Sequence record: MT884006.2
DNA length: 64,000 nucleotides
Strand: one strand, 5' to 3'
Origin: Escherichia phage vb_EcoM_bov9_1
In this document: positions 9,158 through 64,000 of the stretch, in pieces
Position numbering within the stretch: position 1 is the stretch's first letter
How the letters are laid out: every line of letters begins with the position of its first letter
Translations under genes and position numbers: made by a program
Notes under the pieces: generated by a model
The model's database searches: none
What the model was told of the DNA's origin: nothing
What the model saw: the letters and a program-made list of their open reading frames with translations, nothing else

Positions 9158-10165
9158 TTAGCTCACCAACTCAATCCAAGCTGGACGAAGTACATCTTGT
9201 ACCATTTTAACTAATTCCTTTTTAATCAAAGAAGGATTATCTGCTTGAGTTAGAGTAATACCTTCACGAGAAGTTTCTTCCAAAATATCTTGAACAGTTA
9301 GCCCCATCACCTTTCCAAAATCCTTTGGACCAATTTCGCCAATTTTAGAAATAACGTTATTTACGCGGTTTAGTGTAACGTAACAAGCTAAAATTCCAAC
9401 CAATTTGTTATCAGCTTCTGATAGTTCAACTTTAGCTTTAATAGGCTTATCAGACTTTTTCTTTTCACTAAATTTAGAGTTCTTGCATTTAATCGCTACA
9501 CGAGCACCGTTTGGCAGCCATTTAGGGAAACAAGGCTTCAGAACATAACCTTCTGCAGTATTATCACCAATAACATTAGCATCAAATACACAATTATTTG
9601 CTTCGACAAGGTCTTCCGATGCCGTAACGTTATAAGCGGCTAAGACGGAATCAAGGTCGTTTGGAATCATGATAAGAGCATCAAATGTTCCACGTCCAAG
9701 CATTGGTGCCATTTTAAAACCAAACGTATTACAGAAATCTTGCATTTCGTAATCACTCATGTAATAAGTATCACCGCTTTCCGTGTTTATGATGATATCG
9801 AATACATAGAAATCTTTTTCACCGTAGTCAACACCTTTCTGAATTCCACCACCAGCGAATTCACCAAAGACTTGATATGTCACCGGCACTGAAGTTGAAA
9901 TACTGTCCATGACTTCTTGAACGCCTTTAATAGCTTTATCATACTTTTTGAGTACTATTTCATAGCCATAAAAATCTTCAGCAGGAAGAATAGGACCAGT
10001 ACGTTTAGCGCAAGTCACTTTATCACGCTCAATAATCAACGAGAAATTTGTGCCGTGAATCTTTTCACGAGCTACCCATTCGCCGCCAGTCAATCCCAAG
10101 CTGTAAAGTTTTTCAATAAATTTAGAGTTGTAATGATTTTCAAGACTGCTATACTTTTTAAACAT
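9158..10165 (-). CDS. rnlB: RNA ligase 2 (Rnl2)
   Basis: 335 aa; nucleotidyltransferase motif I KIHGTNF (lysine adenylation site); position after gene 24 as T4 24.1/rnlB. Confidence 0.85.
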
Positions 10166-10174
10166 AATTAATCC

Positions 10175-10453
10175 TCAAAATGTAATTTCTAACCAATCAC
10201 CATCACGCTGATCACTATTGACTTTAAAGCTAAATCCTTCTTTTCTAAGCCAATCACCAATTTCTTCAGTAATCAATTTATCGCGAGCAGTACAATAATA
10301 ACTAAAATGTGTTTTACCTTGTTCAGCTGCTTTATTAGCAAGTTCCGAAAAATCTTTAATAAAACACTCTAGCTTAAACTGTTTACTTTTAAGTGCTTTT
10401 TCGCGTAATTGATTAGCAAAAGATTCATTTTCATAAAGATCATACTGTTCCAT
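10175..10453 (-). CDS. Hypothetical protein (T4 24.2 position)
   Basis: 92 aa ORF tightly packed downstream of rnlB start; synteny only. Confidence 0.6.
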   Translation of the reverse strand: MEQYDLYENESFANQLREKALKSKQFKLECFIKDFSELANKAAEQGKTHFSYYCTARDKLITEEIGDWLRKEGFSFKVNSDQRDGDWLEITF

Positions 10454-10655
10454 TTTTCACCTTTTTATTGATATGTCTTTTTCTATAGACAACTTTTTCT
10501 CGAGTTTCAAATTTATTCTTAGCAGTCATAGCTCGAGCCCATAATACAGCCACTTCTTTTGCCTGTAAGTTTAATTCACGAGCAATTTCAATGAATGACT
10601 TTCCAGACTCATGAAGAGTAAACACCACAACCTCAGTTCTCATAATCAATCTCAT
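10440..10655 (-). CDS. Hypothetical protein (T4 24.3 position)
   Basis: 71 aa ORF, overlaps previous by 14 nt; synteny only. Confidence 0.5.
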   Translation of the reverse strand: MRLIMRTEVVVFTLHESGKSFIEIARELNLQAKEVAVLWARAMTAKNKFETREKVVYRKRHINKKVKNGTV

Positions 10656-10723
10656 GTTATCGAGTTGGTGCCATTATATACATCATTTTCTGATTGTGTT
10701 TTGTGTGCTTTCAAAATGAAGAA

Positions 10724-10739
10724 AGGGGCCGAAGCCCCT
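10724..10739 (-). terminator. Terminator hairpin after hoc
   Basis: AGGGGC-CGAA-GCCCCT followed on minus strand by T-rich run. Confidence 0.55.
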
Positions 10740-10744
10740 TATGA

Positions 10745-11875
10745 TTATGGATAGGTATAGATGATACCAGTTTCTAAAGCAGTTTTATGAATGATATATC
10801 CATTACGCGATTCTTGGACATCAACTTCTGGATAGTCTTTCATCATCTTCTGAAGAGTGTAACGATGCAGGTAGTATTTACTATCTGGATCTTCAGTTTT
10901 CCAATCTTTACCTTCTTCAGTCATTTTTTGAATTTCATCCATAACCCACCAACCGCACCAGATGTAAGCTGAGCTACGGTGTGGAAGAGGATGAACATAA
11001 GGTAATTCACCTTCTGGTTCTGGAGCAACTTTATCAGTTACCTGAACTTGACCTTCTGCCGTAATAGTTTTGCTATCATAATCAGCAGCAGTAACAGTTG
11101 CAGTAACTTCAATAGTTTGACTTCCAATAGATGAGGTATCAACGGTATATACATTAGTTGACCCTTCTACAGGAGAAGAATCTTTCTTCCATGAATACTC
11201 AATTTGCGCTTCTTCTGGAGCATCAGTGACATTAGCAGTAAATGTAGCCGAAGCATCTTGTTGAACGTTAATAGAAGGAGGAGTCAATGTAACCTGTGGA
11301 TTCATTGTTTTCTTATTAACCGTTAATGATACTTCATTGGAAGTAACTTCCTTTTCATTGTAATTTTCAGCAGTTACTTGGGCTACGCATTTAATTCTTT
11401 TTACTCCACTTGTAGTTGGAGTATAGCTAAATGTAGAGTTAGTTTCTCCACCAACTTGTGAATCATCTACATACCACTGATACGTAGCAGATGCTCCATC
11501 AGGTTGAGAAACTAAGGCAGCGGTAAATTCAACAGCTGTTCCGATTACTCCAGCGTCAGGGCTATTAGGAGTTACAGCTAAGGTAGTCGTTTGTGTCTTA
11601 TTTTGAACTGTGATAGTTGTAGTAGCTTCTGCTGTTTCAGCATCAGTATCTGGAACTGTATTTGTTGCAACTACTTTAATAGTCTTTTGCCCAGCAGGTC
11701 CTTTTAATACATAATCAAAAGTTGCTTCAGCTCCATCTTGTGGAGCATCATCTACAGTCCAAGCATATGTAATAGTTCCGCCTCCAGTTTCACCACTGGG
11801 TGTAGCAGTAAACTGCTGAGTCTGATCTATAACTCCAGTAGGTGTTTTAGGAGTTATATCAACTGTAAAAGCCAT
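10745..11875 (-). CDS. hoc: Highly immunogenic outer capsid protein Hoc (376 aa)
   Basis: 376 aa as T4 Hoc; Thr/Val-rich repeated Ig-like segments; position between 24.x and inh. Confidence 0.85.
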   Translation of the reverse strand: MAFTVDITPKTPTGVIDQTQQFTATPSGETGGGTITYAWTVDDAPQDGAEATFDYVLKGPAGQKTIKVVATNTVPDTDAETAEATTTITVQNKTQTTTLAVTPNSPDAGVIGTAVEFTAALVSQPDGASATYQWYVDDSQVGGETNSTFSYTPTTSGVKRIKCVAQVTAENYNEKEVTSNEVSLTVNKKTMNPQVTLTPPSINVQQDASATFTANVTDAPEEAQIEYSWKKDSSPVEGSTNVYTVDTSSIGSQTIEVTATVTAADYDSKTITAEGQVQVTDKVAPEPEGELPYVHPLPHRSSAYIWCGWWVMDEIQKMTEEGKDWKTEDPDSKYYLHRYTLQKMMKDYPEVDVQESRNGYIIHKTALETGIIYTYP

Positions 11876-11884
11876 AAGTTATCC

Positions 11885-12565
11885 TTATTTTAATGTTACG
11901 AAAGAAGAATTGCGTGTTTCACGAATTAAAACTGATCCATCACGATTAATGTAATAAATTAAGCTAAATAAAGTTTGGTGTGCTGACGCGTGCTCAAAAC
12001 TTGTTGGGTGAGATTTCCAATCCGGAGTTTCAGCAATCCATTGATAAATCCACCAAGGAACAGTGCAGAATCCTGGATTTTTTCCAATCAACTGAAGATT
12101 CGGACTAAAGTTTTCCGGAAGAGTAAATACAGACGGCCTTTCAGATTCAATAATCTCAGCTACAGCCTGTTCGAATTTTTCTTCAACAAAAGGAGTATCT
12201 TCAATCAAAACATCGGTATTTTCAGGAATTTTATCCGTTTCTACTACTTCAATTTTAATGTCAGATTTAACCGGAGAATCAATCAGAAGTGCTGCTTCTG
12301 GATTGACTTCTTCATCGTCATATTTTAACCCCTCTGCAGCATCAGCAGCATCAATTAAGTCTTTAATAGATAACCCATCAGTCTCCGGCATAGGTTCACT
12401 AGCGAGCTTCTGGAGGGCTTCTTCAATATCAACAACGATATTATCAAAAGATTTATTCTTTTTGACCTTTATACCAAACTGTTCAGCATATTCAGCTAAT
12501 TTAGCTTTAGCTTCTTTATTATCATCAAGAGCCTTCAGCTCTGCAATATAATCTTTATCTATCAT
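11885..12565 (-). CDS. inh: Inh, inhibitor of prohead protease (226 aa)
   Basis: 226 aa as T4 Inh; position between hoc and uvsW. Confidence 0.7.
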   Translation of the reverse strand: MIDKDYIAELKALDDNKEAKAKLAEYAEQFGIKVKKNKSFDNIVVDIEEALQKLASEPMPETDGLSIKDLIDAADAAEGLKYDDEEVNPEAALLIDSPVKSDIKIEVVETDKIPENTDVLIEDTPFVEEKFEQAVAEIIESERPSVFTLPENFSPNLQLIGKNPGFCTVPWWIYQWIAETPDWKSHPTSFEHASAHQTLFSLIYYINRDGSVLIRETRNSSFVTLK

Positions 12566-12578
12566 AATATTTCCTCAG

Positions 12579-12586
12579 TATAAATA
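12579..12586 (+). promoter_or_regulatory. Late promoter motif TATAAATA for uvsW
   Basis: Exact consensus 30 nt upstream of uvsW ATG. Confidence 0.55.
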
Positions 12587-12615
12587 TAGATATATTTATT
12601 ACATGGTATTTAGAC

Positions 12616-14127
12616 ATGACTGACATTAAAGTACATTTTTATGATTTTAGTCACGTGAGAATTGATTGTGAAGAAAGTACATTTCATGAACTCCGTGATT
12701 TCTTTAGCTTTGAAGCTGATGGGTATCGTTTTAATCCGAAATACAAATATGGCCACTGGGATGGACGAATCCGTCTTTTAGATTATAATCGTCTTCTTCC
12801 ATTCGGCTTAGTCGGGCAAATTAAAAAGTTCTGTGATAATTTTGGCTATAAAGCCTGGATTGACCCGCAAATTAACGAAAAAGAAGAATTATCAAGAAAA
12901 GATTTTGATGAATGGCTTTCTAAATTAGAAATCTATTCAGGAAATAAAAGAATTGAACCGCACTGGTATCAAAAAGATGCAGTGTTCGAAGGATTAGTTA
13001 ATCGTCGTAGAATTCTTAATCTTCCAACATCTGCAGGTAAATCTTTAATTCAAGCTTTGCTTGCGCGATATTATTTGGAAAATTATGAAGGTAAAATTCT
13101 TATCATTGTTCCAACAACTGCTCTGACAACTCAGATGGCTGATGACTTTGTTGATTATCGTTTATTCAGTCATGCAATGATAAAGAAAATCGGTGGCGGA
13201 GCATCAAAAGATGATAAATATAAAAATGATGCACCAGTCGTCGTTGGTACATGGCAAACTGTAGTTAAACAACCAAAAGAATGGTTCTCACAGTTTGGAA
13301 TGATGATGAATGATGAATGCCATCTTGCTACAGGAAAAAGTATTTCATCTATCATATCAGGTTTAAATAACTGTATGTTTAAATTTGGTCTATCTGGTTC
13401 ATTACGTGATGGCAAAGCCAATATCATGCAGTATGTTGGAATGTTTGGTGAAATATTTAAGCCAGTAACGACTTCTAAGTTAATGGAAGATGGACAAGTA
13501 ACTGAGCTAAAAATTAATAGTATTTTTCTTCGCTATCCCGATGAGTTCACTACTAAATTAAAGGGAAAAACTTATCAAGAAGAAATAAAAATTATTACTG
13601 GGCTTAGTAAAAGAAATAAATGGATCGCTAAATTAGCTATTAAGCTTGCGCAAAAAGATGAAAACGCTTTTGTCATGTTTAAACATGTATCACATGGTAA
13701 AGCTATTTTCGATTTAATTAAAAATGAATACGATAAAGTTTATTACGTATCAGGGGAAGTTGATACCGAAACCCGCAATATAATGAAAACCTTAGCTGAA
13801 AATGGTAAAGGAATAATTATAGTAGCTAGTTATGGTGTATTTTCTACTGGTATTTCAGTTAAAAATCTGCATCACGTTGTTTTAGCGCACGGTGTTAAAT
13901 CAAAAATCATTGTATTACAAACAATCGGTCGTGTATTACGTAAGCATGGTTCTAAGACAATAGCAACCGTCTGGGACCTCATAGATGATTGTGGCGTTAA
14001 GCCAAAATCTGCTAATACGAAAAAGAAATATGTTCATTTGAACTATCTTTTAAAACACGGCATTGATCGTATTCAGCGCTACGCAGATGAAAAATTTAAT
14101 TACGTAATGAAAACAGTTAATTTATAA
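12616..14127 (+). CDS. uvsW: UvsW SF2 DNA/RNA helicase (503 aa)
   Basis: Walker A LPTSAGKS, DECH box NDECH; 503 aa; late promoter upstream. Confidence 0.9.
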   Translation: MTDIKVHFYDFSHVRIDCEESTFHELRDFFSFEADGYRFNPKYKYGHWDGRIRLLDYNRLLPFGLVGQIKKFCDNFGYKAWIDPQINEKEELSRKDFDEWLSKLEIYSGNKRIEPHWYQKDAVFEGLVNRRRILNLPTSAGKSLIQALLARYYLENYEGKILIIVPTTALTTQMADDFVDYRLFSHAMIKKIGGGASKDDKYKNDAPVVVGTWQTVVKQPKEWFSQFGMMMNDECHLATGKSISSIISGLNNCMFKFGLSGSLRDGKANIMQYVGMFGEIFKPVTTSKLMEDGQVTELKINSIFLRYPDEFTTKLKGKTYQEEIKIITGLSKRNKWIAKLAIKLAQKDENAFVMFKHVSHGKAIFDLIKNEYDKVYYVSGEVDTETRNIMKTLAENGKGIIIVASYGVFSTGISVKNLHHVVLAHGVKSKIIVLQTIGRVLRKHGSKTIATVWDLIDDCGVKPKSANTKKKYVHLNYLLKHGIDRIQRYADEKFNYVMKTVNL

Positions 14128-14139
14128 GGGCTTCGGCCC
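14128..14139 (+). terminator. Hairpin after uvsW (GGGC-TTCG-GCCC)
   Basis: Short GC stem with TTCG loop between uvsW and uvsW.1. Confidence 0.4.
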
Positions 14140-14152
14140 TTTGGAGAAAAAG

Positions 14153-14383
14153 ATGTTACTAGAATTTAAACAATTTCTTTATGAAGCTTCTATTGATGAA
14201 TTTATGGGTAAAATTGCCTCTTGTCAAACATTAGAAGGTTTAGAAGAACTTGAAGCTTATTATAAGAAAAGAGTTAAAGAAACTGAATTAAAAGATACTG
14301 ATGACATCTCTGTGAGAGATGCTTTGGCAGGAAAAAGAGCTGAATTAGAAGATTCAGATGATGAAGTAGAAGAAAGCTTTTAA
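14153..14383 (+). CDS. UvsW.1 small protein (76 aa)
   Basis: ORF track starts at TTG 14141; ATG at 14153 with GGAG 7 nt upstream gives 76 aa MLLEFKQ... Confidence 0.6.
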   Translation: MLLEFKQFLYEASIDEFMGKIASCQTLEGLEELEAYYKKRVKETELKDTDDISVRDALAGKRAELEDSDDEVEESF

Positions 14384-14438
14384 ATTAAAAAAGGCCCAAC
14401 CAAAAAGGAAGGGCCAAAACTATAGACTAAAGGTCACA

Positions 14439-14606
14439 CTATAGCAAAAGTTGTGTTTCATTTAATTGTTCTTCCGAACTTTCTGAAACTGGTAGTTCTT
14501 TAATGTAATTATAGCAAGGCCCAGGATGTACAGGACCTTTGTCTGTTTCAACAACCAATGCAGAATCGATTGGAGTTTTACAGACAACACAAATCTTATC
14601 TGACAT
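14439..14606 (-). CDS. Small Cys-rich ORF, 55 aa (MSDKICVVCKTPIDS...), below ORF-track cutoff
   Basis: Hand-translated; own late-type promoter TATAAATA about 26 nt upstream (14632-14639); CxxC plus downstream Cys suggests metal binding; T4 uvsY.-2 position. Confidence 0.4.
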   Translation of the reverse strand: MSDKICVVCKTPIDSALVVETDKGPVHPGPCYNYIKELPVSESSEEQLNETQLLL

Positions 14607-14859: not shown

Positions 14860-15272
14860 TATTTTCCAGCCTCAAATGCTCGCATGTCTTGAATGTGCTT
14901 AATAGCAAATCCACGTGATTTAATAGCATCAAGAGCTCCGCTACAGAAATCTAATAAAATCCCCCAATACTGTAACGAGGTATCAACCTTTAAAACATCC
15001 TTATCAGCTGATAGAACTGTCTTCATTTCTGATTTCTCGTAACGATCCATACTAAATTCATCACCATCTCCTCGTCCCGAGTAGTAGTCTAATTTAGCTT
15101 TAAGAGCAACTTTCTTTTGCGCGTCAATTCTAAGCATTTCCTTTTTAATACTTGAATGCTTATTAAGCCATTTACTATATAACATCACATTATTAGCTGC
15201 TTCATACTGTAATTTAGTCGAATCTATAAACACATCTTTCTTCAATTCTTCTTGAAGATCTTCTAATCTCAT
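14859..15272 (-). CDS. uvsY: UvsY recombination mediator (137 aa)
   Basis: 137 aa matches T4 UvsY; MotA-box middle promoter upstream. Confidence 0.9.
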   Translation of the reverse strand: MRLEDLQEELKKDVFIDSTKLQYEAANNVMLYSKWLNKHSSIKKEMLRIDAQKKVALKAKLDYYSGRGDGDEFSMDRYEKSEMKTVLSADKDVLKVDTSLQYWGILLDFCSGALDAIKSRGFAIKHIQDMRAFEAGK

Positions 15273-15311
15273 ATTGTTCTCTATTCAATTGTTATTGGAT
15301 GGACTTAGATT

Positions 15312-15342
15312 CATTATACCACGTTTTAACGTGAAGCATTAT
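15312..15342 (-). promoter_or_regulatory. Middle promoter candidate for uvsY (MotA box TGCTT plus TATAAT)
   Basis: Minus strand reads ATAATGCTTCA...13 nt...TATAAT, leader about 35 nt to uvsY ATG. Confidence 0.5.
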
Positions 15343-15737
15343 ACTCTATTACTAGAAGCCAGTTGCAGTTTTATCTGCTCAATATCATCAGGGTTATCGA
15401 TGACCGAAAAACGTATTTCTACTATCAGAGTATAATCATCATAAACGGGTATCACATTAACTGCTAATTTATCAATACGTGGCTCATAGTTTCTTACTGC
15501 GCTTTCGATATTACGCTCAACTGTGTCAGCAGTAAGAGGAGTCATATTTTCAAAAAGCTGGTCTGATAAATCACATCCAAATTCAGGGTCAAACGGTCTT
15601 GAACCTTTTCTTGTTGTAATAATTCCCAAAAGACTGTTTTTAATTGACCTTAATCCAAGTGATCTGGAAACGTCTTTGTTCCAATCCATTTTCATTTCCG
15701 GGTCAATGTCAGAATAAAGCTTATTAATATTTGACAT
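15339..15737 (-). CDS. 25: Baseplate wedge protein gp25 (132 aa)
   Basis: 132 aa as T4 gp25; synteny 25-26 divergent from 51. Confidence 0.9.
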   Translation of the reverse strand: MSNINKLYSDIDPEMKMDWNKDVSRSLGLRSIKNSLLGIITTRKGSRPFDPEFGCDLSDQLFENMTPLTADTVERNIESAVRNYEPRIDKLAVNVIPVYDDYTLIVEIRFSVIDNPDDIEQIKLQLASSNRV

Positions 15738-22980: not shown

Positions 22981-23034
22981 TCCTCATGTTATGTCAGTAA
23001 GACTACTATAACACAACATAAGGAACTTGTAAAC
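22981..23034 (-). promoter_or_regulatory. Early promoter cassette (GTTTACA -35, 17-nt spacer, TATAGT -10, GAGGA RBS), copy A
   Basis: sigma70-like elements on minus strand; 51/54 nt identical to copy at 37956-38009. Confidence 0.55.
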
Positions 23035-25091
23035 TACATTTTGAACTTTTTAGACATTCCGTTGATGTTAACCAAAGAAGCTAAGATTTGAGAAACTTCG
23101 TTTTCCTCTTCTTTTGATTCTTCTACAAGGAATTGATTAAATCCAGCCATTGGACGAACTTCACCAGTTTCCATCAGATGGTCGCCATCATATACTGATT
23201 CTTCTAATTGTTCAGAAGGAGGAACGATTGTACCTTCGATTAGATACTTGTTATAAGCAGTTTCTTTCATCATGTACGTACTTACTTTATTAATCTTCAG
23301 TAAAATTCCACGCGGCAAAATAACTTCAGCTTCGGATGGAAATCCTGATAAATGACCTGGAACGATAACTTTAACTCGTTCAGCTCCTTTAATTACCATA
23401 CCTACATTAGTTTCAGCGTCTTCATTCGCATATGTAGAATGACTACCCATATGCATTAAATCTTCAGCATCAACTGAACCTTCTCCTTCACCAGAAAATA
23501 CTGCTCCGGAATCATCTAAGGCCATATAATTTTTACCATATTCACCGAAGATATTTGGCTTGAGTGAAGTAGATACAAAGTTCTTGAAATAGAACATTTT
23601 ATTTTCTATATTATGACGTAAAGTTTTAAAGGTAACTTCTTGCCCACGATAAAGAGTAGTTCCTGGAGGAAGAACTGAACCTTTAGAAAATGCAGAATCC
23701 AGCGTCTCAATATGTTTAATAGCTCGTTCCATATATTCTTCACGGGTAGAATCAGGTTTACCTAGAAGGAACGAGTTCATTTCAACATATGAATCTGCGC
23801 AATAATCTTCAATTACATCAGACTCAGCCTGAGTTAATCCTTTTGGAGTTACTTCAGTGCTTGCATATTCATATGCCTGAGCAGCAGATTCATCAATTAA
23901 TTTATAAATTCCATTCATTACAAATTGAATAATAGCTGTCTTTTCATCTGGTGTAGCTTTAGAACCTTTAACTAAATCATTGACAATTTTCTTAATAACA
24001 TCAAAGCTATTAGAAATATTAATGTCAGCAAGATCGCTTAAAATTTTATCAGTTTTATAATCAAAGAATTCTTTATTCTTTAAATATTCTTGAGAACCTT
24101 GATATGTTATATCGCTCTGCAGCTTGATAGATGGATCGCGTAAACGTGCATGGGCCAATGCAATATGATTTCGGAAGCTTTCGAGTTCATAATCACTAGA
24201 TTTAAAACGAGAAGCACTTCTCATACCACCGATAGCTCCTTTGCTAAAGTTTGAACCAACCTGAATAACGCCAGAGTTCATTGGTCCTTCTGCTTTATAT
24301 ACCGGAACTTTAGATTCAAACTCTTGATATTTCTTAGCAGCGAAGCTATCACCCTGAAGTGAAGCATCAACAGTAGAATATTGAGCTTGTGCTGCTAATC
24401 GACGACTAATTTTAGTTTTCTGAATAACAGCTTGATCCGTGCGCTTATCATTTTCTAAAGCAATAGAAGCAGCAACAGCAACAGCTTTAGGAACAGCATT
24501 ACCTGTTTTAACGTCTACATAAACATCACCAACCTTTGATTCAACTTTTGTGAATAACTCGGTTGAAATAGGAGGTACACCTGGAATGTCTTCTAAATTG
24601 GCATTTTTACGGTAAACCATAATATATGCGTACTTTTTATCATAATCCCAGATTTCCTTTAAAAGAACATATCGACCTGCTCCTTTAGTACGTACTAAAC
24701 GGTCAGCAATAACTTGCATTTGCCGAGCAGCGCCATTTGTTTTACTTTTTAGTACGCGGAATAAGCATGCATCAATTTTATACTGTTTCATTGTTTGAAG
24801 AGCAGTATCAAAAACAGCATTAATGACGCCAATTGGATTTCCACCCAAGTTTTTAAGCTTAACTAATGATAGTTTCTCATTAACACCTATCATTACGATA
24901 TGCATCATTTTGTCGCCTGGCTTAACGTTTTTATTCGTATCACCGCCAGAGGTGTATGTACAAAATCTAAATCCAGGAAGCACGCTTTCTTCACCTGCTT
25001 GAATAGCAAAAATTTGAGGTATTTTATGCTTAGGATTTAAGTTAACAACCGGCGCCGAAGCGCCGTCAAATAATTCTGTAATAAGTTCCAT
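23034..25091 (-). CDS. Alt-family mono-ADP-ribosyltransferase paralog (685 aa)
   Basis: N-terminal about 230 aa near-identical to adjacent Alt; C-terminal ART signature R (LYRGQ), STS (FVSTSL), ExE (SEAEVILPRG). Confidence 0.8.
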   Translation of the reverse strand: MELITELFDGASAPVVNLNPKHKIPQIFAIQAGEESVLPGFRFCTYTSGGDTNKNVKPGDKMMHIVMIGVNEKLSLVKLKNLGGNPIGVINAVFDTALQTMKQYKIDACLFRVLKSKTNGAARQMQVIADRLVRTKGAGRYVLLKEIWDYDKKYAYIMVYRKNANLEDIPGVPPISTELFTKVESKVGDVYVDVKTGNAVPKAVAVAASIALENDKRTDQAVIQKTKISRRLAAQAQYSTVDASLQGDSFAAKKYQEFESKVPVYKAEGPMNSGVIQVGSNFSKGAIGGMRSASRFKSSDYELESFRNHIALAHARLRDPSIKLQSDITYQGSQEYLKNKEFFDYKTDKILSDLADINISNSFDVIKKIVNDLVKGSKATPDEKTAIIQFVMNGIYKLIDESAAQAYEYASTEVTPKGLTQAESDVIEDYCADSYVEMNSFLLGKPDSTREEYMERAIKHIETLDSAFSKGSVLPPGTTLYRGQEVTFKTLRHNIENKMFYFKNFVSTSLKPNIFGEYGKNYMALDDSGAVFSGEGEGSVDAEDLMHMGSHSTYANEDAETNVGMVIKGAERVKVIVPGHLSGFPSEAEVILPRGILLKINKVSTYMMKETAYNKYLIEGTIVPPSEQLEESVYDGDHLMETGEVRPMAGFNQFLVEESKEEENEVSQILASLVNINGMSKKFKM

Positions 25092-25094
25092 GAT

Positions 25095-27188
25095 TTATCC
25101 TTGAACGAACTTGTAAGGCATGTTTGTAATATCTATGCAAGACGCAATAATTCCAAGAGATGATTCTACTTTCTGTTTAATATTTGATGAAACAAATGAT
25201 GCAAAGTCAACTCTGTCTTCTATTTCAATATCACCTGTCATTGCAGCCAATTCACCAGTTTCCATTAAATGGTCTCCATCATAGATTACCGATTCGGTGA
25301 GCTCTTCCGTGGTCATAACTTCAGCTTGAATGAGTTTTGTATTATTAGATGTTGTTCCGTCATTATTAGAAGCATCGGTTATTTTATTAACTTTGACCAT
25401 CAATCCACGCGGTAGAATAACTTCAGCTTCTGTTGCTATTCCGAGACTTCCTGGATATACAACATTAACTTTATGAGCTCCATCAATTGCCCATCCTATT
25501 TGAACTTTAACATATTCAGGATTTTCTTTATACGCTCTTATTTCGTTTGGATTAATAGTTATTCCTTCTTCATTTTTATCAACTGTTAATTCATTGCGAG
25601 CTTCTGGTTCTAAAAGACCAATACCAGCATGTGTGATTCCAAAACGTCCAAAAATGATAGGAGTTAAAGAAGTAGATACAAAATTTCTGAAGTAGAACAC
25701 TTTATTTTTAACTAACGCTTCATATATAGGAGCAGTCATACTTTGAGCACGATAAACTGTAATGCCTTCTGGTATACGGTCACCATTTTCAAAAGCTGAA
25801 TCTAAGTTATTTATAGCAGATTCAATTTCTTTTTCACTCATTACATCGTATCGTTCTGGATTGTAACGACCTAAAAGAAGATTATTGATGTCAGTATATC
25901 CTGATCCACAATACTCTCTAATGCCGCGCTTTTGCGATGGAGTATATTTAGAACCATCACGTGCAATGGTAATATCAATCATTGGACCTGCACCAATTCC
26001 AGAAAAGCTATAAATCATTCGTTTGAGGAATTTAGTTTTTGCTGCGTTCCAGGAATTTTTAGTTATTTCTTCCCAGACTTCATCTGGCTGCCCTTTACGA
26101 GTTTTATTATGTTTATCAAGCCAATTATCTTTATATTCTTCAAATAATTGATTAACAGCTGCTGCGTATTTCTCTAAACATTTTATTGAAGTAGTTGGTT
26201 CATTTTTAATCGCATTAAGAATTACATCTTTAATTTTTTCAGAAACTTCATTAACCTCACTTTTTAAAAAGAATTTATAGTCATAGTGAAGTTCATCTGC
26301 GGTTCCTTCGGCAATAATTTTTGCTGCCTTAGTTTTAGAAGCTAATGAATTAATTCCAAGCTTCATTTCTTCTGCTTCGGGAATTAAAGGAGCTGTAGCA
26401 GGTTTATTGAAATTAGCTGCGGTAGATTCATATTTCTGGAATAATTCGCTTTCAAATCTAGAAGATTCTAATGACTGACTTTGTGCAATTGCTCTACGGG
26501 AAATTTTAACTTTAACGATAACAGCTTGGTCAGAGCGTTTATCATTTTCTTGTGCAATAGATGCTGCAATTGCCTCATTTTTAGTTACTTGAGCTCCAGT
26601 ATCTTTATTGATATAAACATCGCCGACTTTCGATTCAACCTTAGTAAAGAGCTCGGTACTAATTTCAGGAACTCCTGGAATGTCTTCTAGTGATACATTT
26701 TTGCGATGTATAAGAATATATGCGTACTTTTTATCATAATCCCAGAGTTCCTTAAGAAGGACGTATCTGCCACCTGAACGACTACGGATAAGTCTATCAG
26801 CAATAACTTGAATTTGTCGAGCTTGACCAGCAGTTTTAGACTTAAGAATACGAAGCATACAGGCATCAATTTTATACTGACGCATCGTCTGCATTGCAAC
26901 AGTAAAAACTGAATTGATGTAATTAATTGGGCTTGGACCGAGACCTTTTAATTTAGCAATTGAACCTTTAGCAGTTAATGTAAAAGGAACAATATGCATC
27001 ATTTTATCGCCCATTTTTAAATCGCGATTAGTATCACCTCCAGATGTATAGGTACATAAACGAAAGCCTGGTTGTTCAATTGCATCATCAACATGAACTG
27101 AAAAAATTTGTGGTATTTTCTTCTTTGGATTTAAGTTTGTAATCGGAAGAGTAGTATCTTCGTCAAATAATTCTGTAATAAGTTCCAT
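25095..27188 (-). CDS. alt: Alt ADP-ribosyltransferase (697 aa), capsid-packaged internal protein
   Basis: ART motifs VYRAQ, FVSTSL, TEAEVILPRG; N-terminus MELITELFD...; late promoter TATAAATA at 27213-27220; position next to gene 30. Confidence 0.8.
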   Translation of the reverse strand: MELITELFDEDTTLPITNLNPKKKIPQIFSVHVDDAIEQPGFRLCTYTSGGDTNRDLKMGDKMMHIVPFTLTAKGSIAKLKGLGPSPINYINSVFTVAMQTMRQYKIDACMLRILKSKTAGQARQIQVIADRLIRSRSGGRYVLLKELWDYDKKYAYILIHRKNVSLEDIPGVPEISTELFTKVESKVGDVYINKDTGAQVTKNEAIAASIAQENDKRSDQAVIVKVKISRRAIAQSQSLESSRFESELFQKYESTAANFNKPATAPLIPEAEEMKLGINSLASKTKAAKIIAEGTADELHYDYKFFLKSEVNEVSEKIKDVILNAIKNEPTTSIKCLEKYAAAVNQLFEEYKDNWLDKHNKTRKGQPDEVWEEITKNSWNAAKTKFLKRMIYSFSGIGAGPMIDITIARDGSKYTPSQKRGIREYCGSGYTDINNLLLGRYNPERYDVMSEKEIESAINNLDSAFENGDRIPEGITVYRAQSMTAPIYEALVKNKVFYFRNFVSTSLTPIIFGRFGITHAGIGLLEPEARNELTVDKNEEGITINPNEIRAYKENPEYVKVQIGWAIDGAHKVNVVYPGSLGIATEAEVILPRGLMVKVNKITDASNNDGTTSNNTKLIQAEVMTTEELTESVIYDGDHLMETGELAAMTGDIEIEDRVDFASFVSSNIKQKVESSLGIIASCIDITNMPYKFVQG

Positions 27189-32045: not shown

Positions 32046-32264
32046 TTATGCTTTCTGCTTACCAAAACGAGAAGCATCATCTCGAAGAACCGCACGTGCT
32101 CGGCGCATGATCTTCTCAACAGTTTGATTGATACGAGAGTTCGACCCACGCTTGTAGCCAGCGCGTTTAGAATCACCAACTTTCTTTTCAACTGCTTTCT
32201 TTGCTTTAGCTTGTTTTGCCATTATAAATTCTCTTTTAAATGAAAATGCAGGACTTATTGGCAT
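32046..32264 (-). CDS. Small highly basic protein (Lys/Arg-rich; 72 aa or 58 aa from second ATG at 32222)
   Basis: Two in-frame ATGs; strong terminator hairpin just downstream of stop. Confidence 0.45.
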   Translation of the reverse strand: MPISPAFSFKREFIMAKQAKAKKAVEKKVGDSKRAGYKRGSNSRINQTVEKIMRRARAVLRDDASRFGKQKA

Positions 32265-32863: not shown

Positions 32864-33199
32864 TCACTTATAAAGACACGGAATAGCTTTATAGTGACAG
32901 GTAACAAATTTTTGTTTAATTTCTTTTGGCTGCTTAAGACCCAGAGCTACAAAAGGATGCGGAACGTTTCGAATTTGACCAACTGGAAGAGAAGTCAAAT
33001 CACCAACTTCGCAGAAACCTTCAGGAACATCAGGACCAACAGAGTGAACTACACACAGTTCAGGAACTTCACCTTGAACACGTTTACCGATAATAAGTCC
33101 TGATTCTGTAACTTCTTCATCACCAGCCTGTGCAGGTTCAGAAACTAAAATAACATATTCACCGACAGCACGAATTGGTAGCTGTTGTACTTCAGACAT
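32864..33199 (-). CDS. 31: Co-chaperonin gp31 (GroES analogue, 111 aa)
   Basis: 111 aa; recognised as T4 gp31; MotA-box middle promoter candidate upstream. Confidence 0.9.
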
Positions 33200-33224: not shown

Positions 33225-33258
33225 AATTAATAATAACAAATAATTCTTAAAGCATTTA
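33225..33258 (-). promoter_or_regulatory. Middle promoter candidate for gene 31 (MotA box AAATGCTTTA plus TATTAT)
   Basis: Minus strand AAATGCTTTAAGAATTATTTGTTATTAT about 30 nt upstream of gene 31 ATG. Confidence 0.4.
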
Positions 33259-33564
33259 TTTACCAATAAATTGAAGCAAATGCTCAACTTTCATACCATT
33301 AACAGAAATCAATTTGTCAATAGAAAAACCTCGCCATGCGCCAAGTTCAACATCAAATACTGGAATCATGTCAGTAGATTCTTTCCGAGTAGATTCAGTC
33401 AATTTACCAGTTTGCATGGTTGGCATAAAGTCTGCATCACGAGTACCTTTCATAGTACGAATAGTACCATCAGACTTTTCAAAAACTACGTTTGAAACAC
33501 CCATGGACAATTTGGTTTTCAAAATTTCGCGAATTGCTACTTTCTGCTCAGTTGTCAGTTTCAT
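33256..33564 (-). CDS. Hypothetical protein, 102 aa (31.1 position)
   Basis: ORF; synteny. Confidence 0.5.
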   Translation of the reverse strand: MKLTTEQKVAIREILKTKLSMGVSNVVFEKSDGTIRTMKGTRDADFMPTMQTGKLTESTRKESTDMIPVFDVELGAWRGFSIDKLISVNGMKVEHLLQFIGK

Positions 33565-33801
33565 TTATTTACCTATTACAGTTTTAATATGAGTTGTTCC
33601 ACGTTCTTTAAGGGTGGAAAGTAATTTTTGGCATTTTTCTAAATCAGATTTCCAACTATACGGTCTATCAATACAAACCCATTCTGACTTATAATACTGC
33701 TTCCATTTAGAGAAAAAATATTTCTTATACTCTACAGCAAATGAAATGTTCTCGTTAGAATAAGAACTAATTGCTGTGAGCTGTACCAAACGAAATTTCA
33801 T
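33565..33801 (-). CDS. Hypothetical protein, 78 aa (31.2 position)
   Basis: ORF abutting cd. Confidence 0.5.
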   Translation of the reverse strand: MKFRLVQLTAISSYSNENISFAVEYKKYFFSKWKQYYKSEWVCIDRPYSWKSDLEKCQKLLSTLKERGTTHIKTVIGK

Positions 33802-36583: not shown

Positions 36584-36814
36584 TTATTTCTCAACCAATG
36601 ATTGAATATAATCATGCAAGTCTTTAGATGCTTTACCCCACTTATTTTGGTATTCATTTTTAAGATTAGCCCGAGATTGAGCTAATAAAACATCATTAGT
36701 TGGAGGTAAAGATTCTAATCGTTGAATCTGGCGTCCATAAATCATTGCAGCCATCTCGGATTCATAAATCAATCCTTTGAGATGTTCAAATTGATGCCAT
36801 GAAATCATTTGCAT
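36584..36814 (-). CDS. Hypothetical protein, 76 aa
   Basis: ORF; synteny. Confidence 0.45.
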   Translation of the reverse strand: MQMISWHQFEHLKGLIYESEMAAMIYGRQIQRLESLPPTNDVLLAQSRANLKNEYQNKWGKASKDLHDYIQSLVEK

Positions 36815-37104
36815 TTATCCTCTTTTAGCTCTTGACGATAATAACATATCATAGTTTTTTGGTCATGTACATATCGTTTTACATCATTAAGCCAAATACG
36901 AAATTCCTGGGAATCTTCAAATGGCATACCGACCCAAGCTTTACCATCAATAACTTTAACTTGCCAAGATAGTTTAGCTTCATCATATGACTTTATTTGT
37001 ACAGGCCAATTAGGATGAACTGTTTCTTTCTTTACTTCTAGAGGCTTTGTCGAACAACCAACTAGAAGACCAATAGATAATATTACTGCTGATAGTTTAA
37101 TCAT
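36805..37104 (-). CDS. Outer-membrane spanin candidate (lipoprotein, 99 aa)
   Basis: Signal peptide with lipobox LVGC near N-terminus; directly downstream of i-spanin-like gene with ATGA overlap. Confidence 0.6.
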   Translation of the reverse strand: MIKLSAVILSIGLLVGCSTKPLEVKKETVHPNWPVQIKSYDEAKLSWQVKVIDGKAWVGMPFEDSQEFRIWLNDVKRYVHDQKTMICYYRQELKEDKCK

Positions 37105-39627: not shown

Positions 39628-40806
39628 TTAAAAGTATTTTTTAAAACTCATCATAACTTTATCATCAACATCATTATCAATCTGTGCAACAAGATAAGAT
39701 GACAGTTCTACTTCTTGTGGCGCGGATTGAACATTATCAGAATTAAGATATTCACGAATCCAAGGATATGGATGTTTAACCGGAGCATCGGTAATTGGGC
39801 ATGGAAGACCGCACTGTTTCATACGAGATACAGTTAAGTAATCAATAAAGCTCCACATGCTATTTGTATTTAATCCAGGAACATCGCCATCTTTAAATAA
39901 ATGAACTGCCCAATCTTTTTCTTGGCGGTTAACTTCCATGAAAATATCAACTGCTTCTTGTTCACACTCTTGAGCAATTTTAACCCATTCATCGCCATCA
40001 GTACCAGATTGAAGTTGACGAATAATATATTGGGTGCCTTTAAGGTGAAGCTGTTCATCGCGTGCAATGAACTTCATAATCTTGGCATTACCTTCCATGA
40101 TTTCCATGTTTTTATGGAAGTTAAAGGTACATGCGAAAGATACATAAAAACGAATAGCTTCCAATGCGTTGATTACATGCAAACAGAGGTAAAGAGATTT
40201 CATTAGCTCATGCTTCCAATATGTCTCATGCTCAATAGCATCTTCAATAACGTCTTCGTCTGCATTAATTTCTTTTTGGTATTCGATATCAGCTTTAGCG
40301 TTTTCCCAATAACGAGTTTTAATCAGAACATCATCATAATAACGTCCAATGGATTCAGCACGTTTCATAATAGCTTCATCTAATACAATTTCATCAAATA
40401 CCTTCGATGGATCAGTATAAAGATTTCGCATGATATGTGTATATGAACGGCTGTGAATAGTTTCACTAAAAGTCCACGTAGCAACCCATGTATCAAGGCT
40501 TGGGTCTGAAATTAATGACATAAGTACAGCAGACGGCGCACGACCCTGAATGCTATCCAAAAGTGATTGATACTTCAGGTTATTAGTAAAAATATTTTGC
40601 TGATACTGAGGAAGCTTATTAAACTGTGCAGCATCCATCATTAAGTTTACTTCTTCAGGCCGCCAGAAAAATGATAATTGCTTTTCGGTCAAATCTTCAA
40701 AAACTTTATGGCGTTGAATATCATAACGCGCAATACCAAGACCTGAACCAAAAAACATAGGTTCTTTTAAAACATCAACTGGATTTGTATTAAAAACTGT
40801 AGACAT
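39628..40806 (-). CDS. nrdB: Ribonucleotide reductase small subunit NrdB, uninterrupted (no intron)
   Basis: Continuous about 392 aa ORF from MSTVFNTNP; di-iron RNR small subunit composition; start overlaps HNH gene stop (TAATG). Confidence 0.9.
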   Translation of the reverse strand: MSTVFNTNPVDVLKEPMFFGSGLGIARYDIQRHKVFEDLTEKQLSFFWRPEEVNLMMDAAQFNKLPQYQQNIFTNNLKYQSLLDSIQGRAPSAVLMSLISDPSLDTWVATWTFSETIHSRSYTHIMRNLYTDPSKVFDEIVLDEAIMKRAESIGRYYDDVLIKTRYWENAKADIEYQKEINADEDVIEDAIEHETYWKHELMKSLYLCLHVINALEAIRFYVSFACTFNFHKNMEIMEGNAKIMKFIARDEQLHLKGTQYIIRQLQSGTDGDEWVKIAQECEQEAVDIFMEVNRQEKDWAVHLFKDGDVPGLNTNSMWSFIDYLTVSRMKQCGLPCPITDAPVKHPYPWIREYLNSDNVQSAPQEVELSSYLVAQIDNDVDDKVMMSFKKYF

Positions 40807-41537
40807 TAATTTTTCCTCTTTAAAATTCTGCCGTGTTTCCAACCTGGCGGTATAATATCATCTTTACCTATAAGCGTGCATTCACTTCCATTATTAATCC
40901 ATTTCTTACCACGAATTCCTTTATAATCTCTTGGTTTTATTTTGTCAAACTTTGCATCAAGTTGATATGCCCATCTAAATCCATAGGCATATTGAAATTT
41001 ACCCTCAGCACAATATTTGATATTTGACCCGTTTCCATTAACTGACCGGGACGCTTCCGCGATAGAGTGAAATGTTTCTATAAAATCCCCATCTAATGAG
41101 AATTTATGTATTTCGATAGATGGACATGCATACCTATTCACGTTTGATACATGTTGTTTAGTTTCGTTTTTATGATGCTTGCCTAACATTCCTCTAGGAT
41201 GAGGATTATTTTTCCAATATTTCTTAAAGAAATCAGAATTAGCTTTAGCAAATAATTTTCTGTGCAAGCTATACAATCTGTTATTAATTCTATTACCAGC
41301 TTTATCTGTTGCCATTAACGTTAACGCAGAGGCAAGCCCAAAATGGCCTTCATTTATCTTACATAGTAATAGATGCGCTATAAAATGTTCTCTAGCTGTT
41401 AATTCAACTAAATTTTCTTTATCATCAGAACCTCCCATGCATTTAGGGACTATATGATGTGTCTCTTTATATTCGGATAAAGGTTCCCGAGCCTGAGCTC
41501 GGGAAATTAGGTCATTATAGATTTTTTGATAATTCAT
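40806..41537 (-). CDS. mobE: HNH homing-endonuclease-like protein (243 aa), mobE-like by position
   Basis: N-terminal HNH motif HHIVPKCMGGSDDKENLVELTAREHFIAH; nested between nrdA and nrdB with 1-nt TAATG overlaps at both ends. Confidence 0.55.
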   Translation of the reverse strand: MNYQKIYNDLISRAQAREPLSEYKETHHIVPKCMGGSDDKENLVELTAREHFIAHLLLCKINEGHFGLASALTLMATDKAGNRINNRLYSLHRKLFAKANSDFFKKYWKNNPHPRGMLGKHHKNETKQHVSNVNRYACPSIEIHKFSLDGDFIETFHSIAEASRSVNGNGSNIKYCAEGKFQYAYGFRWAYQLDAKFDKIKPRDYKGIRGKKWINNGSECTLIGKDDIIPPGWKHGRILKRKN

Positions 41538-48818: not shown

Positions 48819-48900
48819 TTTTATTTCCTTTTTAATTTAATTAACAGTTGGTGCTATGACGATGTATGACCTCATAGCTGGTCAGTGAGATAATTATAAT
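48819..48900 (-). promoter_or_regulatory. Gene 32 translational operator (pseudoknot plus UUAAA-rich unstructured leader)
   Basis: Leader reads ...GCUAUGAGGUCAUACAUCGUCAUAGCAC...UUAAUUAAAUUAAAAAGGAAAUAAAAAUG, matching known gp32 autoregulatory site architecture. Confidence 0.6.
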
Positions 48901-48901
48901 C

Positions 48902-48909
48902 TATTTATA
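48902..48909 (-). promoter_or_regulatory. Late promoter (minus strand TATAAATA) for gene 32
   Basis: Plus-strand TATTTATA 9 nt downstream of gene 59 stop. Confidence 0.55.
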
Positions 48910-48917
48910 ATAAGCAA

Positions 48918-50161: not shown

Positions 50162-51079
50162 TCAAAATTCATTAATGCTATTAGTTAATTTAGAAAGACC
50201 CGCTTTTACAAAATATGAATAAATTTTGCCACGCGGTGGTAATTTATATGAATTATAGTAATTCACAATGTTTGAAGCAATATTATCAGGAATATAATCA
50301 AAATCAATTAGAACTAAATTTTCTTTATAACGATTATATTCAGATTCTGTGAGAAGCACCTTAGCTTGCTCACGGTCATTAGCAATGGCTTCAACGATTG
50401 AAGTTTTCATTGAAGGAGTTCGTTCACCTTCAACTCTGGTAAACCAAAAGTCAGATCGTACTTTAACTGAAGCAACGTTATCCTTTTTGTCGCCTTTAAG
50501 GATTTTAGTCATACAGTCAATTTCAGCAGAACCGTTTTTAATTTTAACCCATTTCTTATGCATCGGCGACCATTGCTTGACATTTGGATATTTGTGAAGC
50601 TGCGTAAAGTCACCATCCGACGAAATGATTAAAATCTTATGTCCTTCTAAAGAGAACTTTTTAACAAGAACGGCAATATGGTCATCTGCTTCATACTTAT
50701 CAATATCCATAACAATGTATGGCATATAAGCTTTCAATTCATCTATAACTTTATGACTGGATTCAAAATAACCTTCCCAGTCCCAAGTAGATTCTTCTCG
50801 TGCTTTTCCACGGTTTTTCTTATAATAATAAGCGAAATCACGACGCCAATATCCAGATTTCGCATTATCAATACACAGTACAATTTTAGTGTATCCAAGA
50901 GTTTTTGCTTTTTTGACATTAAACTTAATTGAGTTCAATATCAAATGACGAACCATTGATAAATTAATTTTTTCTTTATCTGGGAAGTTTACCAAAGCAG
51001 TTGAAAGCGCAATTTGACTAAAGTCAATTAAGCAAATTCCTTCTTTGTAATCTTCATCCAGCATCATTTCTAAATCCAT
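50162..51079 (-). CDS. rnh: RNase H / 5'-3' flap exonuclease (305 aa)
   Basis: ATG at 51079 with GAGG RBS gives 305 aa MDLEMMLDE...; FEN-family acidic residues. Confidence 0.9.
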   Translation of the reverse strand: MDLEMMLDEDYKEGICLIDFSQIALSTALVNFPDKEKINLSMVRHLILNSIKFNVKKAKTLGYTKIVLCIDNAKSGYWRRDFAYYYKKNRGKAREESTWDWEGYFESSHKVIDELKAYMPYIVMDIDKYEADDHIAVLVKKFSLEGHKILIISSDGDFTQLHKYPNVKQWSPMHKKWVKIKNGSAEIDCMTKILKGDKKDNVASVKVRSDFWFTRVEGERTPSMKTSIVEAIANDREQAKVLLTESEYNRYKENLVLIDFDYIPDNIASNIVNYYNSYKLPPRGKIYSYFVKAGLSKLTNSINEF

Positions 51080-61661: not shown

Positions 61662-61934
61662 TTATTTGTTCGTATACATCTCTAGATATCGATATACACC
61701 CTCAAAACCCTCGTTGAATTCGTCGATGAGGGTTTTCTTATCTTCTTGAGTTAATTCAGAAACAATTTTACGGAATGAATTCTGATTTAATTTTCTACCT
61801 TCATGTGTTACTCCAATCTCATTCAGAAATGCAATAAAATTAGCACGATTTTCAACAATATCTTCTCTGGAAAATTTAATCAAAATAGACGCAACAGTAA
61901 TAATTTCACGAACTGTATCAATATTTTTATTCAT
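61662..61934 (-). CDS. asiA: Anti-sigma70 factor AsiA (90 aa)
   Basis: Sequence MNKNIDTVREIITVASILIKFSRED... recognised as T4 AsiA. Confidence 0.9.
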   Translation of the reverse strand: MNKNIDTVREIITVASILIKFSREDIVENRANFIAFLNEIGVTHEGRKLNQNSFRKIVSELTQEDKKTLIDEFNEGFEGVYRYLEMYTNK

Positions 61935-63753: not shown

Positions 63754-64000
63754 TCACAGTTCAGATGCTACAGTGATTACTGCTTCAATGTTTTCTGCCG
63801 AGCGTTTAATATCAAGATACACATTACCGTTTTTAGCGATTTTACATGACATTCCGATGTCAGTAAATTTCTGAATATGGTGTTCCATCATTTTGTATCC
63901 AAAAATTCGCATATTTCCATTGTTGTTAATTTCAAAATTACGAATTCCGTGAGTGCGTTTTTCTAAAATAGCGAGATAGTTACTACGATAAGTTTCAACC
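63754..64000 (-). CDS. motA: MotA middle-transcription activator, C-terminal DNA-binding part (5' end outside window)
   Basis: Hand-translated open frame to window edge ending ...IAKNGNVYLDIKRSAENIEAVITVASEL; matches my recollection of the MotA C-terminus. Confidence 0.55.
   Translation of the reverse strand, partial: VETYRSNYLAILEKRTHGIRNFEINNNGNMRIFGYKMMEHHIQKFTDIGMSCKIAKNGNVYLDIKRSAENIEAVITVASEL

Follow-up and report, generated by a model that had tools for sequence, protein, structure and literature searches.

The stretch of DNA analysed here, referred to as the window, comprises 64,000 nt from Escherichia phage vb_EcoM_bov9_1 (MT884006.2), and from gene 18 to motA its genes are arranged as in T4. 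Upstream of uvsY (site 1, PuvsY) and of gene 31 (site 2, P31), we found a MotA box followed by a -10 element, in both cases on the minus strand, which is the coding strand of both genes (Table 1). Read 5' to 3' on this strand, site 1 consists of the box TAATGCTTCA, the spacer CGTTAAAACGTGG and TATAAT, and site 2 of the box AAATGCTTTA, the spacer AGAATTATTTGT and TATTAT. The initial annotation had described TGCTT-containing MotA boxes with these two hexamers, and both are present on the minus strand, where the limits it gave, 15312-15342 and 33225-33258, enclose exactly the box and the -10 element of each site. Each box overlaps the stop codon of the preceding gene, namely the TAA of gene 25 (15341-15339) at PuvsY and the TAA of gene 31.1 (33258-33256) at P31. 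The start codons of the two genes, both of which are pre-replicative, lie 34 nt (uvsY) and 24 nt (gene 31) downstream of the predicted transcription starts, the latter distance being the P31 leader. In the Tequatrovirus bov10K1 (MT884007.2), 2 kb around site 1 are 100% identical, and window positions correspond to the coordinates of that record minus 96001.

Table 1 Positions of promoter elements, transcripts and genes in the window
Feature	Position	Strand	Remarks
MotA box of PuvsY, TAATGCTTCA	15341-15332	minus	identical to T4; fits the published consensus
TGCTT of the PuvsY box	15338-15334	minus	-32 to -28
PuvsY spacer, 13 nt, CGTTAAAACGTGG	15331-15319	minus	
TGn extended -10 of PuvsY, TGG	15321-15319	minus	within the spacer
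-10 element of PuvsY, TATAAT	15318-15313	minus	-12 to -7
Predicted start (A) of the uvsY mRNA/oriF primer RNA	15306	minus	by orthology to T4 start 115371
PuvsY leader, 34 nt	15306-15273	minus	predicted start to uvsY start codon
Region downstream of PuvsY	15207-15305	minus	rest of the leader and 5' end of uvsY
uvsY coding sequence, 137 aa	14859-15272	minus	135/137 identical to T4 UvsY
MotA box of P31, AAATGCTTTA	33257-33248	minus	same box as T4 P31
TGCTT of the P31 box	33254-33250	minus	-31 to -27
P31 spacer, 12 nt, AGAATTATTTGT	33247-33236	minus	
TGn extended -10 of P31, TGT	33238-33236	minus	within the spacer
-10 element of P31, TATTAT	33235-33230	minus	-12 to -7
Predicted start (A) of the gene 31 middle transcript	33223	minus	by orthology to T4 start 131540
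Gene 31 coding sequence (GroES-like co-chaperonin)	32864-33199	minus	111/111 identical to T4 gp31
uvsW	12616-14127		
rnh	50162-51079		
asiA (anti-sigma-70 co-activator), complete	61662-61934	minus	90/90 identical to T4 AsiA
motA 3' part, C-terminal 81 codons and stop	63754-64000	minus	79/81 identical to T4 MotA

The published consensus of T4 middle promoters, (a/t)(a/t)(a/t)TGCTTtA at 12 ± 1 bp from a TAtaaT -10 element (Hinton 2010, PMC2988021), is matched at both sites, with the box near position -30 and the -10 element following after 13 nt in PuvsY and after 12 nt in P31. Both sites carry a TGn extended -10, an element found in about half of the T4 middle promoters (PMC2988021). A generic scan for sigma-70 -35/-10 promoters called neither site and found no acceptable -35 at either, as is expected of an activator-dependent promoter. 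Directly upstream of uvsY and of gene 31, no late promoter (TATAAATA) was found.

Further sequence features were noticed close to the two sites. The last two bases of the PuvsY box together with its spacer form a perfect 14-nt palindrome, CACGTTAAAACGTG (15333-15320, minus), a central base of which is altered in phage RB33 while the arms are kept, and which is lacking in Mosigvirus. The sequence GTATAATG occurs twice, 25 nt apart (15337-15344 and 15312-15319); the downstream copy is the PuvsY -10 element, and the upstream copy, which overlaps the MotA box and represents the Val-stop end of gene 25, is probably coincidental. We rejected the TATAAT in this upstream copy (15343-15338) as an alternative -10 element, as it has neither a -35 nor a well-spaced upstream box (a GGCTTCT is just 10 nt off), corresponds to the Val and stop codons of gene 25 and lacks conservation in other genera. 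We likewise discarded a further TGCTT ahead of P31 (33277 region), which is part of the 31.1 coding sequence; Mosigvirus and Dhakavirus keep no -10 element at the right spacing from it.

A short A+T-rich consensus can be matched fortuitously, and in the window, which is 64% A+T, the loose pattern TGCTT-N13-15-TANNNT was indeed common, with 25 matches against ~15 expected. This enrichment is weak, so that a TGCTT combined with a -10-like hexamer is unconvincing unless the full box, the spacing and orthology are also considered. The strict pattern WWTGCTTYA-N11-13-TANNNT, in contrast, was matched four times on the minus strand and not at all on the plus strand, whereas 200 dinucleotide shuffles of the window gave ~0.5 matches per strand and not one of them reached four on the minus strand. 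The strict pattern is thus enriched ~8-fold, on the minus strand only, and its four matches are the orthologues of the T4 promoters PuvsY, P31, PdsbA and P34i.

The correspondence with T4 is close. Transcription in T4 has been reported to start at 115371 for PuvsY and at 131540 for P31 (Hinton 2010, PMC2988021, Table 1), and when we extracted T4 positions -40 to +6 at these coordinates, we obtained these same promoter sequences, with an A as +1 located 7 nt after the -10 element; the two starts map to positions 15306 and 33223 of the window. For PuvsY, the identity with T4 is 100% between the end of gene 25 and +20, box, spacer and -10 element included, and the 13-nt spacer, the TGn, the palindrome and the placement after the gene 25 stop codon and ahead of uvsY are all shared. 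P31 has in common with its T4 counterpart the box AAATGCTTTA, the 12-nt spacer, TATTAT, the 24-nt leader and the location at the 31.1 stop codon, and differs from it by one substitution only, at spacer position -20 (33243), which is a T here and a C in T4. More widely, 14 of the 17 middle promoters listed for T4 between 109 and 153 kb have an orthologous sequence in the window; the three without one are PI-TevIII, PnrdB and P32, which stand in T4-specific intron or homing-endonuclease contexts. We infer by orthology that the transcription starts and the MotA dependence of both promoters carry over from T4 to this phage.

In other genera, the functional elements were retained to a greater extent than the bases adjoining them. 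The P31 elements ATGCTTTA and TATTATTAAT are invariant across Tequatrovirus, Mosigvirus and Dhakavirus, and the spacer length of 12 nt is unchanged in the latter two, while the sequences of spacer and leader vary. In Mosigvirus, the megablast homology to the gene 31 region extends up to position 33258, adjacent to the upstream end of the P31 box, so that gene 31 and its promoter travel together. For PuvsY, a comparison of seven phages from five genera showed that TATAATG is invariant, as is the GCT of the box, the core of which reads TGCTT in Tequatrovirus and Mosigvirus, CGCTT in Gelderlandvirus and Karamvirus and TGCTA in Jiaodavirus; the spacer and the leader, for their part, differ between the phages not only in sequence but also in length. 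In the phage collection, the 46-nt P31 core was present with at least 99% identity in 431 records and the PuvsY core as an exact match in 120 records. The PuvsY core of RB33 has a single deviating base in the middle of the spacer palindrome, and a change at this position would block the 28-nt exact word required by megablast, which may explain the lower count for PuvsY. Exact-pattern scans of IMG/VR, a collection with few Tequatroviruses, returned 2 and 3 contigs.

We further made use of published T4 RNA-seq data obtained 5 min post infection with wild type and a motA amber mutant (James et al. 2018, PMC6024815, Table S1). In these data, uvsY had 11,917 reads in the wild type and 165 in the motA amber mutant (log2FC -6.30, adjusted p 3e-171), a drop of ~79-fold, and the reads of uvsY.-1 (3,348 vs 34, ~100-fold lower) and uvsY.-2 (3,344 vs 48, ~75-fold lower) fell with it. 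Gene 25, directly upstream of uvsY, had just 199 reads in the wild type and 12 in the mutant (log2FC -3.93), and at the gene 25/uvsY boundary the T4 RNA level steps up 60-fold (PMC6024815). High uvsY RNA next to low gene 25 RNA, together with the loss of uvsY RNA in the mutant, means that a strong MotA-dependent start has to lie between both genes in T4. Because the upstream genes are all late, essentially all pre-replicative RNA of uvsY, uvsY.-1 and uvsY.-2 would originate from PuvsY. Against this step-up, the strand-specific enrichment of the strict pattern, the match of both sites to T4 promoters with listed starts (in P31 save for one spacer base) and the conservation of box and -10 element amid varying bases, we consider the probability that the motifs resemble a short A+T-rich consensus by chance and have no promoter function to be negligible.

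The response of gene 31 was far smaller. Its reads decreased from 31,441 in the wild type to 23,439 in the motA amber mutant (log2FC -0.61, ~1.5-fold), a modest drop because early read-through also supplies this gene, and the reads of the upstream gene 31.1 went from 9,845 to 14,503 (log2FC +0.36; PMC6024815). Judged from gene-level RNA-seq, the contribution of P31 to gene 31 RNA appears small or partly MotA-independent. The weak response could also mean that one or both sites are TGn-containing sigma-70 promoters which fire mostly without MotA and AsiA, early in infection or constitutively, and in which the box is incidental. This would be likeliest for P31, since read-through confounds the gene-level data there, and at both sites the TGn stands right upstream of a good -10 hexamer, which in principle makes some activator-independent initiation possible. 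However, the RNA of both 31.1 and cd rises in the motA amber mutant, which identifies the residual gene 31 RNA as read-through from upstream, and the per-nucleotide step-up from 31.1 to 31 amounts to ~2.9x in the wild type and to ~1.5x without MotA (PMC6024815), that is, it halves. Moreover, polymerase bound by AsiA prevails after the first minutes of infection, the P31 box is conserved in three genera, and P31 is listed among the identified middle promoters (PMC2988021); at PuvsY, such a mode is hard to reconcile with the extent of the loss of uvsY RNA. We therefore regard mostly MotA-independent firing of either site as improbable.

Judging by sequence and orthology, both sites are very probably MotA/AsiA-dependent middle promoters that work by sigma appropriation and are direct orthologues of T4 PuvsY and P31. 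The middle-mode reading of uvsY and gene 31 put forward initially is thereby supported. The initial annotation had treated the two sites as equivalent, which they are not: their MotA dependence in T4 is unequal, and in these phages uvsY should depend almost wholly on MotA, whereas gene 31 should not. It made no mention of the TGn extended -10 elements, of the overlap of PuvsY with oriF or of the core that P31 shares with a tRNA promoter, the last two of which are described below.

On the model established for T4, AsiA would bind and remodel region 4 of the host sigma-70 early in infection, so that the polymerase no longer reads the -35 element. The C-terminal domain of MotA would then contact the TGCTT box near -30 and its N-terminal domain the far C-terminus of sigma-70, while region 2 of sigma-70 would recognise the -10 hexamer, here strengthened by the TGn extended -10. 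Initiation would take place at the A 7 nt past the -10 element (window 15306 and 33223), and P31 would provide a modest boost to gene 31 RNA over the read-through from upstream early promoters. Of the two regulators involved, asiA is complete in the window, whereas only the last 246 nt of motA are in it, so that the claim of a locally complete regulatory circuit holds for the genome but just partly for the window. The 3' part of motA encodes part of the DNA-binding domain, and the gene runs past the window end; the genome contains the whole gene, encoding a MotA of 211 codons that is 206/211 identical to that of T4.

A further relationship emerged for P31. Its core in the window (33254-33227, minus; from the box to 3 nt past the -10 element), TGCTTTAAGAATTATTTGTTATTATTAA, recurs without a mismatch over all 28 nt in PtRNA, the mapped middle promoter of the tRNA cluster, where it is found at 72597-72624 in T4, at 70327-70354 in bov10K1 (MT884007.2) and also in Mosigvirus LF82-9. 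The start predicted from TGCTTTAAGAATTATTTGTTATTATTAA for T4 PtRNA, 72593, equals the published value (PMC2988021, Table 1). The PtRNA copy is ~59 kb away from P31, outside the window, and most Tequatrovirus records have the 46-nt P31 core at two places; in the window, in T4 99-169 kb and in RB33 within +/-20 kb, no second copy was present. In Mosigvirus LF82-9, the second place is just upstream of the tRNA cluster. At position -20, P31 of the window has the PtRNA allele (T), and it is T4 P31 that is one base off the shared core (C). Upstream of the box, PtRNA of bov10K1 and LF82-9 diverges from P31 at once, while T4 PtRNA has TGGTAAAT in common with P31; downstream of the core, one mismatch is followed in all copies by TCAT or TTAT and then by divergence. 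For other pairs of T4 middle promoters in the region, the exact match does not exceed 11 bases, and against this background an identity over 28 nt argues that P31 and PtRNA are homologous copies and not two mere matches to the consensus. Tentatively, such a distribution could mean that middle promoters are short portable cassettes able to spread, or that gene conversion homogenises them. In the literature searched, which covered few of the older T4 papers, we found no published description of the core shared by P31 and PtRNA.

PuvsY is also of interest with regard to replication. Both T4 records annotate a replication origin, oriF or ori(uvsY), at the uvsY promoter, with the uvsY transcript as primer RNA. 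T4 oriF consists of a middle promoter and a downstream unwinding element (DUE), at which a persistent R-loop arises; RNase H probably trims the transcript to the leading-strand primer, and UvsW unwinds the R-loop late in infection (Kreuzer & Brister 2010, PMC3016281). By orthology with T4, PuvsY most likely doubles as the oriF promoter in this phage. In the A+T-rich and purine-rich region immediately downstream, its transcript would give rise to a persistent R-loop, from which RNase H would generate a leading-strand replication primer and which the helicase UvsW would dismantle late; both uvsW and rnh are located in the window (Table 1). Over the 100 nt downstream of +1, the A+T content is 71% (90th percentile of the window), and purines make up 63% of the RNA-like strand (99th percentile). 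When the segment length was varied, A+T was 70-71% (74th-90th percentile) and the purine content ranged from the 94th to the 99th percentile, with the first 40-60 nt reaching just the 74th-80th percentile for A+T. We infer that this composition is compatible with a stable RNA-DNA hybrid.

The origin function bears on the question of what site 1 is conserved for. Its annotation as oriF in T4, the requirement of oriF for a middle promoter as well as a DUE (PMC3016281) and the purine-rich downstream strand would all fit a scenario in which site 1 is maintained mainly as the promoter of the R-loop primer, uvsY expression being secondary. This scenario is compatible with a MotA/AsiA-dependent promoter at the site, and we consider it possible, though rather doubtful: uvsY has no other pre-replicative promoter, so selection for its expression suffices alone, the DUE varies in sequence between genera and, according to published work, can be replaced by heterologous unwinding elements (PMC3016281), and origin activity has been demonstrated in T4 only.

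Some observations concern neighbouring regions and existing annotations. T4 P32 has no BLAST orthologue here because in T4 segG lies between genes 59 and 32, and segG is absent from this phage; upstream of gene 32 (48893-48916, minus), the window has another box-like site, TGCTTATTATAAATAGATTATAAT, which overlaps a late-promoter-like TATAAATA. The regions 40806-41537 and 39628-40806 contain no counterpart of T4 PI-TevIII and PnrdB, nrdB is seemingly intron-less, and a different homing endonuclease gene is located between nrdA and nrdB; the nrdA/nrdB region thus shows that mobile elements reshuffle the set of middle promoters. In the alt region (23034-27188), we noticed two long ORFs of about 685 and 697 aa, where T4 has one alt gene plus the short duplication remnants alt.-1 and alt.-2; apparently two alt paralogues are retained at full length here, as in RB33. 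The GenBank record MT884007.2 contains no promoter or origin features, and its naming of several small T4 ORFs (32046-32222, 33256-33801, 36805-37104) is implausible, with 30.9 named glycogen branching enzyme, 31.1 and 31.2 tail fibers protein and pseT.2 Rz1. PuvsY/oriF, P31, PdsbA and P34i/oriG can be annotated by orthology, which has little significance beyond correct annotation, and the oriF overlap, the unequal MotA dependence and the P31/PtRNA cassette are likewise useful annotations rather than discoveries.

PuvsY and P31 are already known from T4, and their presence in a relative that is 95-99% identical is expected. The oriF leader of T4 has a tandem pair of CCAATAACAA and is 44 nt long, whereas the leader in the window has one copy and a length of 34 nt; the T4 tandem is a perfect duplication of a 10-bp unit and constitutes the sole difference between the oriF region of the window and that of T4. 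A single CCAATAACAA copy was found in 33 of 34 Tequatrovirus records in a spread listing and in all 40 top records, the latter count resting on record spans (60 nt vs the 70-nt query), as BLAST split the alignments in two. Among the sequences compared, the single-copy leader is the common Tequatrovirus state and T4 the outlier. Origin strength could differ from that of T4 owing to the single copy, and the atypical T4 leader is relevant when T4 origin studies are generalised. PtRNA shares its core with P31 and drives tRNA genes, while P31 drives a protein gene. A second T4 origin, oriG or ori(34), uses the middle promoter P34i, the orthologue of which lies in the window at 53420-53393 (minus), antisense inside gene 34, with one spacer mismatch to T4, so that promoters of both R-loop origins (PuvsY/oriF and P34i/oriG) are present. 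P34i follows the same origin logic as oriF, but in contrast to PuvsY it is situated within a late (long-tail-fibre) gene, on the strand opposite to that gene, and serves no downstream protein gene.
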